Source: a virus (taxonomy: Duplodnaviria; Caudoviricetes). From it: 64,000 bases of DNA. Of this stretch, positions 2,454 through 54,891 are shown piece after piece. Made by a program: the position numbers and the translations under genes. The stretch's first letter is position 1, and each line of letters starts with the position of its first letter. Location of the stretch: the IMG/VR virus record IMGVR_UViG_3300045747_000505; one strand, given 5' to 3'. Below the pieces are notes generated by a model. The model ran no database searches. It had not been told where the DNA came from and saw only the letters and a list, made by a program, of their open reading frames with translations.

Positions 2454-2665
2454 GAACCTTTCGCATCATTGAGCGAAATCTTGGTTCGAAGCAAGGCTTT
2501 CGCGTCGAGGAGCGGCGCTGGTTTCGCTGGCAAACGCATGTCTTCGACTACGGCGAGGGCTGGAACACCACGATCTGGTTCGACTCCTACGAGGAGGCCA
2601 AGGCTGGCATCCTAGCTATTGCCCCACCGTGTGACTTCGTAGTGGGTACAATCACTATTCTATGA
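2450..2665 (+). CDS. Hypothetical protein
   Basis: Overlap-coupled ORF in the operon. Confidence 0.55.
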   Translation: MRTFRIIERNLGSKQGFRVEERRWFRWQTHVFDYGEGWNTTIWFDSYEEAKAGILAIAPPCDFVVGTITIL

Positions 2666-3174
2666 GCGACCGTTCGGCATTCGATCTCTTCTCAGGACTT
2701 GCCAGCCTTTCACGAGGTGACAAGTCCTGGTTTCAAAACCTTTCACCTGAGGGACAGAAGGCGGCAGCGCCGTTTGTGATGGCGCGTTGGATGACTGGCA
2801 CCTCGGATGCCCAGCAAATCCTTCGCATAAATACCTTTGTCAATCCCTTCCTCTTCACCGGCACAACCGACAAGAGTGGTCTGTTCAAGCTTATGGCGGT
2901 CGCCGCCACTGGCAAGAACGCTCGCTACTCTTGGCTCAAGGGCCCAGGCCCGAAGAGCAAGAAGCTCTCGCTTGAGGTCATCAAGCAGTACTACGAGTGC
3001 TCGACGCGCGAGGCCAACACCTATCGCATCGACGCCGCAAGCCTGCTTGAGATGGCCGAAGAGTGTGGGTGGGAGAAGGACGAGATAGCAAAGCTGAAGA
3101 AAGAGGTAGATGATGGATCGGGAACAGCTGAGAAAGCAAGCGTCAAGCCGGCGAAGCCAAGTAAGCGTCGTTGA
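2662..3174 (+). CDS. Probable clamp loader A subunit (T4 gp62-like)
   Basis: PFVMARW and IKQYYECSTREA segments resemble gp62-type proteins; lies just downstream of the gp44-like gene. Confidence 0.6.
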   Translation: MSDRSAFDLFSGLASLSRGDKSWFQNLSPEGQKAAAPFVMARWMTGTSDAQQILRINTFVNPFLFTGTTDKSGLFKLMAVAATGKNARYSWLKGPGPKSKKLSLEVIKQYYECSTREANTYRIDAASLLEMAEECGWEKDEIAKLKKEVDDGSGTAEKASVKPAKPSKRR

Positions 3175-3862
3175 GGAGACCGTCAAGCCTGACGTCAAGT
3201 GGCCGTGCGAGTTCTGCGGTCACATCTTCTCGTTTGAGAAGTCCTTCATGAACCATCGCTGTCGCGAGCGTGATCGCATTGAAGTGCTGCGCGGTCCAAA
3301 GGGTCAGGCTGCCTACGCGCACTACAGCGACTGGATGCGCATGAAGAAGCGCAGCGTCCCGCCGATTGAATCGTTCGGCGCCTCCAAGCTCTACTCGACC
3401 TTCGTCAAGTTCGCCGAGTACGCCGACCGCACGCACATGCCGAACATCCCGCTCTTCATTCGGTTGATGGTTGAGCACGACATTTCACCGACGCTGTGGA
3501 GTCGCGATCAAACTTACTCGATGTACCTTCAGTGGTTCGACAACGCTCACCCGCCAGAGGTTCAGGTCCTTGAGTCGCTCGAGCTGCTCACCACGATTGC
3601 GCTCGACTACGAGTGCTATCGCCCAGACGTCTTCAAGGTGATGCCGCTCGGCTTGCTCGTGCAGCTCATTGAACGGCGCAAGCTCAGTCCGTGGTTTCTG
3701 CTGTCGTCGAAGGTCTTTCGCGACCACGTCGGCTCGCTGAACCAAGAGGACAAGGCGCGACTTCAGCGTGCGGTCAATGAGGGTGCGATGGTCAATCGCA
3801 TTCAACAGGACCAAAGCCGCTTCGCCTTCTTCAACAAGGTTACTCGGGAAGAGGGTCTCTAA
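3110..3862 (+). CDS. Conserved-type phage protein with N-terminal C2H2-like zinc finger
   Basis: CEFCGHIFSFEKSFMNHRC motif. Confidence 0.7.
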   Translation: MMDREQLRKQASSRRSQVSVVEETVKPDVKWPCEFCGHIFSFEKSFMNHRCRERDRIEVLRGPKGQAAYAHYSDWMRMKKRSVPPIESFGASKLYSTFVKFAEYADRTHMPNIPLFIRLMVEHDISPTLWSRDQTYSMYLQWFDNAHPPEVQVLESLELLTTIALDYECYRPDVFKVMPLGLLVQLIERRKLSPWFLLSSKVFRDHVGSLNQEDKARLQRAVNEGAMVNRIQQDQSRFAFFNKVTREEGL

Positions 3863-4071
3863 GTGGCACGGCGTGTCTTCGCCTCGATGCCACTTGACTG
3901 CGCCAAGTTCTACAATCGTCTTATGAATAGGTTGGTGCTCAACATCTGGGCAGTTAGAATGGGTCTGTTCGATACGCTGCTGTGCGAGACGTCGGACCCA
4001 TTCGTCTTCGTGCGCTGGTGCGAAGCGCTACCAAGAATCATTGAAACCATCGAAGCCAACGGAGGCTCATC

Positions 4072-4647
4072 ATCGACGTCGACATAGACACGCAAACCAG
4101 CTTCGACCCAGTGAAGCTCTTCCCATCGTGGGTTCGCGCCTCGGTCGTCCGCGATGGTCGCCTGACGCCACACCCATGCGGCGTCTACCCTCAGCGCATG
4201 CCACGCGACCCACTGACCAAGCTCGCCGCCATTCCGCACGAGGCAGCGGAGGACTTCGGCTTTCTCAAGGTCGACTTTCTGCACCTGAGCGCCTACAACG
4301 GGTTCAAGTCCCGTGAGGAGATCGAGCGCCTCGTCGCGCTTGAACCCAACTGGTCGCTGCTTCAGCTCACCTCAACGCACGGCAAGCTGTTTCAGCTGTC
4401 CAAGCATGGTGACATGTTGAAGGCGGTCAAGCCATCATCCGTCGAGGAGCTCGCGGACTGCATGGCGCTGATTCGACCTGGCAAGAAGGCTTTCCTCGGT
4501 CTCTACACGAAGGAGCGGGCTGCGGCTCGCGTGCTGCTGTACGCCAAGGACCCCGAGAGCGGCTACGCTTTCAAGAAGTCGCACGCGCTTGCGTACGCGC
4601 TGGTGGTCGTGCTTCAACTTCATCAGATTGAGCAGGGCAGCTTGTGA
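4072..4647 (+). CDS. Stand-alone minimal DNA polymerase III alpha (DnaE)-like catalytic domain; probable ATC start
   Basis: DVDID (4075-4089), HPCGVY, GFLKVDFL, ALIRPG and GYAFKKSHALAY match DnaE motifs. The DxD motif lies upstream of the called GTG (4111); GGAGG at 4061-4065 precedes ATC 4072; in-frame TGA at 4042. Confidence 0.8.
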   Translation: MDVDIDTQTSFDPVKLFPSWVRASVVRDGRLTPHPCGVYPQRMPRDPLTKLAAIPHEAAEDFGFLKVDFLHLSAYNGFKSREEIERLVALEPNWSLLQLTSTHGKLFQLSKHGDMLKAVKPSSVEELADCMALIRPGKKAFLGLYTKERAAARVLLYAKDPESGYAFKKSHALAYALVVVLQLHQIEQGSL

Positions 4648-4802
4648 ACGCGAAGCAGCTAGCGAAGGTCGCGTGGTTCGTCCATCGAACGGGCTGTGAT
4701 GCCGCCGAGGCTGAGAAGTTCCTGAAGGAGGCGAAGTTCAGAATCGACGAAGCCATCAAGCTTCGGCGCGACCACTGGCAGCGAGTGTACAGTAAATCGT
4801 AA
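4644..4802 (+). CDS. Small UBA-like (EF-Ts N-terminal-like) protein, 52 aa
   Basis: Translated by hand: MNAKQLAKVAWFVHRTGCDAAEAEKFLKEAKFRIDEAIKLRRDHWQRVYSKS; GTGA overlap with the DnaE-like stop. Confidence 0.5.
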   Translation: MNAKQLAKVAWFVHRTGCDAAEAEKFLKEAKFRIDEAIKLRRDHWQRVYSKS

Positions 4803-5967: not shown

Positions 5968-6252
5968 TTGGAAGGGACTTTGAAAGTGAAGATTGTCTAC
6001 GAACCGCTGCCCGCCGGCATCAAAGCTCACAAGTTCTATCCGGGCGAGCGCTGCGTCCTCATCGACGACAAGCACCTCGCGGTTTGGGTCGACAATCAAC
6101 TCATTCAAGCCGACCGTCCACTCCCGCAAAACAGCGGCTACCTGCGCGTCACCAACGAGCCGTTGCCCTCCATCCTCTACGCCCACCACACTCAAATTGC
6201 CCACATCGCTCGCGAACGCATCACCCTGCCGTTCGCACTAAAGGAGTTCTGA
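5968..6252 (+). CDS. Hypothetical protein
   Basis: Downstream of promoter at 5951; TGATG overlap with next gene. Confidence 0.6.
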   Translation: MEGTLKVKIVYEPLPAGIKAHKFYPGERCVLIDDKHLAVWVDNQLIQADRPLPQNSGYLRVTNEPLPSILYAHHTQIAHIARERITLPFALKEF

Positions 6253-7298
6253 TGAAAGACGTTCTGTTTCAAGTGACCTACGGGTCGCGCCTCTACGGCA
6301 CCAACACGCCCACCTCGGACACCGACCTCAAGTCCGTGTTTCTGCCAGCCATAGACGACCTGCTGCTCGGGCGCAAGCTCGGCACCTCCAAGACGCGCGT
6401 GCACAGCGACGGGTCGCCAGTGCCCGACAAGAGCTCGATGCCTGACAACGGCGTGGAGCACGAGTACTTCCCGCTTCAGACCTTCGTGCGCGACTTCGTG
6501 CAGGGTCAGACGTACGCGCTCGAGATGGCGTGGGCGGTCCTCGCCAACGGGCCGGATGGCCACACTCTTCAAGCGGCTCGTGAGCACGAGCTGATGGTCG
6601 AGCTGGTCGAGAAGTTCGGCAACTGCTCGGTGTACTCGATGGTCAGCTTCGCGATGAAGCAGACGTTCGACTACGTGAAGCGCGGTGAACGGCTGGAGCA
6701 GGCTCGTGAGCTGCTCGACGTGCTGAACGTCTGCATGGAGATGTTCGACTGTCTCGACGCAATGGACCCAGGCAGCTATCTGAACCCGCGCCTCGACACC
6801 GTGCTGCCCGACGGCGAAAAGCTCCTTCACAAGCTGTCTCGTGAAACCAACCTCGAGCTCGGCACCAGCGTGAACAACAACCGCGCCTTCGAGACGCTGA
6901 AGCTCAACGGCCGTGAGTACCTCGAGACTACGGCGGTGTCACACCTCGTGCTCGCCGTGCAGAAGCTGGTCAGCGAGTACGGTGAGCGCACCAATCGCGC
7001 TGCGAAGGAAGTTGTCGACTACAAGTCGCTGAGCCACGCGGTGCGCGTCTATGAGCAGGCTCTCGAGCTGCTGGACACCGGCCGACTGACGTTCCCACGT
7101 CCGAACGCCGACTACCTGCGCTCAGTGAAGCAGGGTCTCGTGCCGCTCGAAGAGGTGAAGGCTCGACTGCTCGAGCTGGACGAGGAAGTCCTCGCCAAGC
7201 AAGAGAGCTCTACTCAACGTCGCAAGACGCCAGAGCTGGTCGAGGCATCGGAAGAATGGTTGCTGACGAAGCTCCGCCAGCTGTACCTTCTTGACTGA
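6252..7298 (+). CDS. Pol-beta superfamily nucleotidyltransferase (RlaP/Nuc-transf-like)
   Basis: YGSRLYGTNTPTSDTD (GS...DxD) motif; AAGGAG RBS; C-terminal helical domain with KSLSHAVR. Confidence 0.85.
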   Translation: MKDVLFQVTYGSRLYGTNTPTSDTDLKSVFLPAIDDLLLGRKLGTSKTRVHSDGSPVPDKSSMPDNGVEHEYFPLQTFVRDFVQGQTYALEMAWAVLANGPDGHTLQAAREHELMVELVEKFGNCSVYSMVSFAMKQTFDYVKRGERLEQARELLDVLNVCMEMFDCLDAMDPGSYLNPRLDTVLPDGEKLLHKLSRETNLELGTSVNNNRAFETLKLNGREYLETTAVSHLVLAVQKLVSEYGERTNRAAKEVVDYKSLSHAVRVYEQALELLDTGRLTFPRPNADYLRSVKQGLVPLEEVKARLLELDEEVLAKQESSTQRRKTPELVEASEEWLLTKLRQLYLLD

Positions 7299-53924: not shown

Positions 53925-54256
53925 AGACATGGGTGCTACAGCCATTCTGTAGTGATTGTTGTAATTCGGAGCAAGTTGAAGGATTCTGGACGCGGGTTCG
54001 ATTCCCGCCAGGTCCACCACAAAACACATACCGCCGGCTGTAGAATTCGGCAACACCTTAGGGACGATCCACGTGGTGTGTGTTTTGTAATGGGCCTGAC
54101 CTGGTCTCGACAGGGTTACGGAGATGCGCACACGCAACACGAGAGTCGACCGACGTAATCGGCGAAAACACGCTAAGTGCAAACGAAGCAAACTTCCGTC
54201 TGGCTGCTTAATACCCAGCTCACGGTGAGGCTAACCACCTTATAAAGCAACGGTGA
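53925..54256 (+). ncRNA. ssrA: Circularly permuted (two-piece) tmRNA; tag ANEANFRLAA*
   Basis: 3' acceptor piece GCGGGTTCGATTCCCGC-CAGGTCC-A-CCA ends at 54019 and precedes the 5' piece GGGCCTGAC-CTGGTCTCGAC at 54092; G3.U70 pair; tag frame 54179-54211; outer ends approximate. Confidence 0.9.
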
Positions 54257-54282
54257 GGACAGGACACTTCGGTGTCCTGTCC
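54257..54282 (+). terminator. Hairpin after tmRNA coding piece
   Basis: GGACAGGACAC-TTCG-GTGTCCTGTCC. Confidence 0.75.
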
Positions 54283-54306
54283 GCTATCATTTATACTGGA
54301 GACCCT

Positions 54307-54816: not shown

Positions 54817-54891
54817 GCGTCGTTAGCTCAATGGTAGAGTACGGGCCTCTAAAACCCAGGGTTATCGGTTCGATCCCGATACGACGCACCA
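54817..54891 (+). tRNA. tRNA with CUA anticodon (amber suppressor), tRNA-Lys-like body
   Basis: Acceptor GCGTCGT/ACGACGC-A-CCA, D-arm GCTC/GAGT, loop CT-CTA-AA (CTA 54849-54851), T-arm ATCGG-TTCGATC-CCGAT; anticodon stem has only 3 Watson-Crick pairs. Confidence 0.85.

Follow-up and report, generated by a model that had tools for sequence, protein, structure and literature searches.

Judged from its sequence, the gene at positions 4072 to 4647 (+ strand) of the window—the whole 64,000-nucleotide stretch of viral DNA analyzed here, from IMG/VR record IMGVR_UViG_3300045747_000505 (Caudoviricetes)—is the C-terminal half of the split, minimal DNA polymerase III alpha subunit (Pol III alpha) of T4-related (group 2.2) jumbo phages. 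We consider it probable that this half is translated from the ATC codon at 4072 and that its product docks with an N-terminal half encoded by a separate gene. For group 2.2 jumbo phages, a minimal Pol III alpha divided between two genes has already been published, with a proposed role in cooperation with the phage family B polymerase, in one-strand synthesis or repair (Iyer, Anantharaman, Krishnan, Burroughs, and Aravind 2021, Viruses 13:63; PMC7824862); start codons are not discussed in that paper. The gene and its parts are as follows:

4072 to 4647, + strand: the polymerase gene itself (191 codons and a TGA stop), encoding the C-terminal half that binds Mg2+ and template; phrog_11778
4061 to 4065, + strand: Shine-Dalgarno (SD) sequence GGAGG, 6 nt 5' of ATC 4072; predicted anti-SD pairing -9.5 kcal/mol, rank 4 of 69 family members
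4072 to 4074, + strand: proposed ATC initiation codon; the M of relatives falls at exactly the same position, and there is no canonical alternative
4075 to 4089, + strand: DVDID (GAC GTC GAC ATA GAC); D2, D4, and D6 invariant in 57 sequences; first beta-strand of the AF2 model
4273 to 4275, + strand: third catalytic Asp (KVDFL); D68 invariant in 57 sequences; aligns with LKMDFLGL of Thermus Pol III alpha
4474 to 4482, + strand: RPG finger motif; R135, P136, and G137 invariant in 57 sequences; aligns with LYRPG of Thermus Pol III alpha
4570 to 4584, + strand: FKKSH finger motif; F167, K168, and H171 invariant in 57 sequences; aligns with GFNKSHAAAY of Thermus Pol III alpha

After an in-frame TGA (4042–4044), frame 1 stays open from 4045 until the TGA at 4645–4647, and the motifs DVDID, HPCGVY, KVDFL, LIRPG, and FKKSHA are all encoded within 4072–4647 (+). 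An earlier, sequence-only reading of this DNA had described these DnaE motifs as packed into about 190 codons that lack PHP, OB, and clamp-binding domains; all the motifs that it listed were verified together with their coordinates, and Pfam returned for this ORF a sub-threshold DNA_pol3_finger match alone. By its motif, DVDID is the counterpart of the DnaE PDxDxDF motif, the bearer of two metal-binding aspartates. The C-terminal LQLHxI, considered as a candidate clamp-binding motif, was rejected: it is part of the last helix and continuous with FKKSHALAYAL, which aligns to GFNKSHAAAYSL of Pol III alpha. Near the gene, we found no convincing promoter or terminator of its own.

The protein matches phrog_11778 ("DNA polymerase") in PHROGs with an E value of 2.2e-53, protein positions 9–196 aligning to profile positions 6–192 of 197, and its weaker PHROGs matches fall in the middle of full-length DnaE-like phage polymerases (positions 581–680 of 1190 in phrog_405). 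A large protein collection yielded 1076 metagenomic homologues (110–350 aa), nearly all of them 189–192 aa long; one of these, P0004, has 191 aa and is 83% identical, and the nearest homologue from a cultured phage is 49% identical to the window protein. With tblastn, homologues were found in 96 cultured phage genomes, and among the matches listed all belong to jumbo phages (of the RaK2/GAP32, PA5oct, XacN1, RsoM2USA, and Atu_ph07 type) or to a 141-kb Alishewanella phage. A profile of 57 family members aligns to chain positions 608–720 of Thermus Pol III alpha, from the third-Asp motif through RPG, and to positions 809–823 (GFNKSHAAAY). The AF2 model of the window protein, built on the 57-member alignment, attains a pLDDT of 94.5, and a Foldseek comparison of the model with the PDB has Pol III alpha or PolC in each of the first 17 places (4iqj, 2hpi, 5lew, 7pu7, 3e0d; best E 4e-5), with Pol III alpha throughout among the matches at E <= 0.001 (TMq 0.53–0.57).

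Bacterial DnaE/Pol III alpha (E. coli 2hnh; Thermus 2hpi, 3e0d, and 4iqj; M. tuberculosis 5lew) likewise has a Pol-beta-type palm with DxD plus a third Asp, and it shares with the window protein the order of the finger motifs, RPG and then FNKSH, along with the significant fold match. The bacterial subunit is about 1160 aa long, however, and the window protein differs from it in lacking PHP, thumb, most of the fingers, beta-clamp-binding, and OB regions, with about 360 residues of Thermus alpha condensed into 190. A full-length DnaE or PolC would carry PHP, a complete palm on one chain, beta-binding, and OB in about 1000 aa or more, whereas this chain has 191 aa. The difference extends to the active site itself—the nucleotide-binding half of the palm, which is on the same chain in bacterial Pol III alpha, is a separate polypeptide in the split phage enzyme.

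For this reason, the description of the gene as a stand-alone catalytic domain, as first proposed, had to be abandoned: the nucleotide-binding GRGS half of the palm is missing from it, and in relatives this half is a separate upstream gene. In RsoM2USA, the N-terminal half is gp216, which belongs to phrog_11127 ("DNA polymerase") and matches Pfam DNA_pol3_alpha (PF07733) above threshold (E 8e-10, profile positions 20–93). Homologues of gp216 lie on the same strand, 3.9–7.9 kb upstream (median 5.4 kb), in 38 of the 38 unique metagenomic loci with enough flank, and the expected position of the N-terminal half in this genome is to the left of window base 1. The gp216-type halves share a conserved C-terminal end (...EFFHD-stop), and their profile aligns to residues 312–392 of E. 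coli alpha; because it stops 9 residues short of D401, the cut appears to fall in the loop just before the metal-binding aspartates (E. coli DnaE ~392 to D401). Like the known split minimal Pol III alpha genes (RsoM2USA gp210, Atu_ph07 gp074), the window gene encodes a protein of about 190 aa with the same motifs, apart from the NTP-binding unit (the N-half being placed by synteny in relatives); unlike them, it lacks a start at ATG, GTG, or TTG and seems to rely on ATC.

Although a word-based search for longer fused relatives (336–2000 aa) returned none, an exhaustive profile search later found rare one-piece forms. In P0201 (375 aa), an N-half (hhalign 99.6%) and a C-half (E 3e-35) are joined by a 9-residue linker, and P0261 (336 aa) has the same order, N-half then C-half; P0271 (398 aa) is apparently permuted, its C-half preceding an N-half that spans residues 218–312 (hhalign 97.8%). 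These fusions of 336–398 aa were the sole long forms among the best 150 hits, and they call for caution, all three being singleton or two-member clusters on short contigs. The one-piece forms support the view that the two halves would make one enzyme.

The gene's surroundings point to a T4-like replication apparatus, as the sequence-only reading had supposed when it placed a miniature Pol III-type module in a clamp-loader operon, conjecturally as an aid to priming or primer extension: it lies on the same strand as a gp44-like gene, in a tightly packed array:

1219 to 2139, + strand: gp44-like clamp-loader large subunit (phrog_168, E 5e-79; Pfam AAA and Gp44_lid)
2662 to 3174, + strand: probable gp62-like clamp-loader small subunit (phrog_11758, E 1e-10)
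3110 to 3862, + strand: phrog_11058 protein (E 1.6e-32), with a C2H2 zinc finger (invariant C-x2-C...H-x-C) and an all-helical domain
3863 to 4087, + strand: conserved 74-codon frame-2 ORF, opening with GTG directly after the upstream stop TAA and ending in TAG; overlaps the ATC by 16 nt

In RsoM2USA, the corresponding block comprises a dCMP deaminase, gp216, a GroES-like gene, gp214, the gp44-like and gp62-like genes, phrog_11058, a small ORF, gp210, gp209, and an RlaP-like nucleotidyltransferase. The window reproduces this order from the gp214 homologue (1–1158) onward, with gp210 as the homologue of the polymerase half, and RsoM2USA gp212, syntenic with the gp62-like gene of the window, also matches phrog_225 ("clamp loader", E 5.5e-7). 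Farther along the window, 6084–7298 encodes an RlaP-like nucleotidyltransferase of the Pol-beta superfamily (phrog_388, E 9e-55); since it is syntenic with RsoM2USA gp208, the conserved block holds a second nucleotidyltransferase. Overlapping the polymerase stop at GTGA is a 52-codon ORF (4644–4802); its UBA-like match (PF14555, E 2e-4) is borderline and falls slightly short of the threshold.

The phrog_11058 gene is a near-constant neighbor of the polymerase half, preceding it in the majority of 85 other loci, and the cultured phages in which it occurs all belong to this one jumbo-phage group. The AF2 model of its product (pLDDT 93.4) bears a weak resemblance to the T4 helicase loader gp59 (Foldseek probability 0.21; Z 5.1, rmsd 9.8), and none of 51 phrog_11058 members gave a Pfam gp59 match; the protein might act as a helicase loader or assist the split polymerase as an accessory subunit. 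By tblastn, 29 other loci have a homologue of the small ORF (3863–4087) directly before the polymerase half; the ORF has no family match in Pfam or PHROGs. The window carries a tRNA with anticodon CUA (54817–54891), near a permuted tmRNA gene (53927–54302, ARAGORN; tag ANEANFRLAA), and because of this tRNA the TAG of the small ORF may be read through, adding 8 more codons up to TGA 4112.

Turning to the start of the polymerase half, the frame contains no ATG, GTG, or TTG between TGA 4042 and the DxD codons, its first canonical start being GTG 4111, and a second ATC (4069) stands in frame directly 5' of ATC 4072. This agrees with the initial observation that DxD lies upstream of the first ATG/GTG/TTG, behind an in-frame TGA at 4042 and with GGAGG 6 nt before the ATC, all of which we verified. 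That observation came with a prediction, namely that homologues should begin M-D-[IV]-D-I-D, and most do: most metagenomic homologues begin MDVDID or MDIDID, and RsoM2USA gp210 begins ATG GAC ATC GAC ATA GAT (M-D-I-D-I-D), 2 bases past the stop of the small upstream ORF. Because homologues begin in this way, ATC 4072 is the best start, as had been suspected. More distant homologues have 2–10 extra residues before DxD, for example M-x-x-[AGP]-D-I-D-I-D. A start at GTG 4111 (4111–4113, +) was considered and rejected; it would delete the invariant D2, D4, D6, and F11, it has no SD upstream, and the Val at this position is not conserved. As in near-cognate AUH starts, none of the canonical codons would yield the conserved N-terminus, and an SD is correctly spaced before the ATC.

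We surveyed the start codon nearest DxD in 69 unique genes, drawn from 91 metagenomic loci, two cultured-phage loci, and the window, finding ATG in 51, GTG in 12, TTG in 3, and ATC in 3; L084, at first sight an exception, starts normally at GTG, and the cultured relatives have canonical starts in all cases. The ATC genes are those of the window, L023, and L039. In each, the ATC immediately precedes the first Asp codon, and no canonical start is present between the upstream stop and DxD in any of the three. They fall in three separately supported clades of a maximum-likelihood tree, where the window's sister, L006, uses TTG and the sister of L039, the nearly identical L037, uses ATG. All three have a properly spaced SD of unusual strength (GGAGG +6 nt in the window, AAGGAG +6 nt in L039, GGAG +8 nt in L023), and their predicted anti-SD pairing ranks 4, 6, and 16 of 69, the probability of three random picks all at rank 16 or better being about 0.01. 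Mean pairing is -8.1 kcal/mol for ATC genes, compared to -6.6 for TTG, -4.9 for GTG, and -4.4 for ATG.

The three ATC genes have intact ORFs, keep all 28 invariant columns of the 57-sequence alignment, and are under purifying selection, with dN/dS of 0.17 for the window against L005 and L012, about 0.14 for L023 against L024, and 0.017 for L039 against L037. At L023, the gene upstream of the ATC is on the opposite strand and no same-strand ORF abuts the ATC; initiation there cannot depend on an upstream ORF, and thus neither coupling nor frameshifting is required. The protein calls for three further homologues are odd in a way that would be expected if a canonical start were absent (their starts being deduced from the calls)—P0015 and P0036 are called from the downstream GTG equivalent, and P0031 from far upstream through I-I-D-I-D-I-D.

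Several other accounts of the gene's 5' end were weighed against initiation at ATC 4072. One, a trivial variant, is that translation begins at the neighboring ATC 4069, giving M-I-D-V-D-I-D; this codon is in frame, P0031 likewise reads ..A-I-I-D-I-D-I-D, and some relatives have those 2–10 additional residues, yet the GGAGG would then be spaced by 3 nt, too short for a normal SD, and the closest relatives (191 aa) begin exactly at the 4072 position, leaving this variant distinctly unlikely. We regard it as very unlikely that the phage really has ATG and that the ATC arose in sequencing or assembly or represents a minority variant. A single base separates the two codons and the window is a metagenome assembly, but ATC before DxD recurs on two other independent contigs, each time with a good SD, and the calls for P0015 and P0036 (downstream) and P0031 (far upstream) fit a missing canonical start. 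There is also little chance that the start has been lost, with the gene silent, decaying, or making an inactive, DxD-less product from GTG 4111. Gene callers did pick downstream starts, and on the window's own contig the called protein (P0010) has 149 aa, begins at ATG 4198, and lacks DxD; against this, the 191-codon ORF is intact with every family-invariant residue present, dN/dS against the nearest relatives is about 0.17, the strong SD is well spaced for ATC while none precedes GTG 4111, and the same situation is found in three lineages.

An origin of the DxD N-terminus by frameshifting—a -1 shift or fusion from ORF 3863–4087, or a +1 shift from TTG 4041—seems to us exceedingly improbable. 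It is true that this ORF overlaps the polymerase frame over 4045–4087 and that TTG 4041 opens the third frame. However, 4045–4087 contains no X XXY YYZ slippery heptamer, there is no significant RNA structure (z -0.82), and TTG 4041 has no SD; moreover, no homologue has such an N-terminal extension, the small ORF of relatives stops just before, or overlapping, the normal start, and the ATC start of L023 has an opposite-strand gene upstream. Both outcomes that had been named at the outset as fatal to an ATC start, initiation at GTG 4111 and a frameshift fusion from 3863–4087, are thus disfavored.

The ATC starts themselves may not all be independent. Over 1.3 kb, L039 and L037 share about 97% identity, interrupted by a 45-nt patch of about 70% identity (L039 1029–1073 and L037 2886–2930), which spans -21 to +24 around the polymerase start. 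Within it, the ATG and weak SD of L037 are replaced in L039 by ATC and AAGGAG, codon and SD having changed together, and the patch looks like a short recombination or gene-conversion tract. Its sequence in L039 resembles the start region of L023 (ATCAAnATCGATATnGACGT), and the ATC starts of L023 and L039 may share one origin through recombination; given this possibility, and since the window's start region is unrelated to theirs, we count at least two origins of the ATC start rather than three. In L023, the small ORF and the polymerase half are separated by an inserted ORF with a NUMOD3 motif (3081–3734, - strand), which abuts the ATC with its 5' end. The NUMOD3 motif is a DNA-binding module of the homing-endonuclease type. 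The 45-nt patch, its likeness to the L023 start, and the NUMOD3 gene abutting that start together hint at a speculative scenario in which the 5' end of the gene is reshaped by selfish nucleases that target the conserved DNA encoding DxD. That ATC with a strong SD might be a recurrent, selected, and perhaps recombination-spread start, limiting the dosage of the metal-binding half and hence of the two-chain enzyme, is an idea that we put forward as unlikely.

Under the reading that we prefer, initiation at ATC 4072, the codon would be read as fMet by the initiator tRNA, driven by the strong GGAGG 6 nt upstream and possibly helped by ribosomes terminating on the overlapping upstream ORF (TAG 4085–4087). 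No initiator-like tRNA reading AUC was found in the window, which encodes only tRNA-CUA, tRNA-Val, two tRNA-Tyr, and the tmRNA. The product would start M-D-V-D-I-D, as in relatives. By sequence and fold, this chain supplies the three acidic metal ligands and the finger residues, and, to go by relatives and the literature, the other chain (GVGRGSS...EFFHD-stop) would supply the GS-loop that holds the triphosphate of the incoming nucleotide. The halves would then dock non-covalently into a single Pol-beta-fold active site, forming a family C core with no thumb, PHP, or clamp motif.

Initiation at AUC reaches about 1–2% (range 0.02–3%) of that at AUG in E. coli reporters, with an N-terminal Met confirmed by mass spectrometry (bioRxiv 10.1101/063800), and so weak a start codon probably keeps the yield per mRNA low, though the strong SD offsets this in part. 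The proposal that the ATC throttles the gene is therefore plausible for this genome, and fails as a trait of the family: 74% of relatives use ATG, so that low dosage looks like something that some lineages tolerate, not a design of the family as a whole. The AUU starts of E. coli infC and pcnB are comparable in being near-cognate AUH codons with a usable SD, for which low, IF3-sensitive initiation is expected (bioRxiv 10.1101/063800); the infC AUU, however, is conserved and autoregulatory, whereas ATC in the window's family is sporadic (3 of 69 relatives).

In RefSeq, gp074 of Atu_ph07 (NC_042013.1), a "DNA polymerase", is annotated from a downstream ATG (L002 locus 6064), which removes the catalytic DIDID. 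Its true start is likely the ATG at L002 locus 5983, which overlaps the end of gp075 and would give M-K-N-I-P-D-I-D-I-D-F. If the start codon is non-canonical, or if it overlaps the gene upstream, automatic gene callers trim away the catalytic DxD, and the resulting records look catalytically dead although the proteins probably are not. As the enzyme family has already been described computationally, the window gene adds one more example to it, and the recurrent ATC start is a modest new detail of a known family. Even so, the natural ATG/GTG/TTG/ATC series with its compensating SD strength, together with the one-piece and permuted forms, would provide easy constructs for testing the two-half polymerase.
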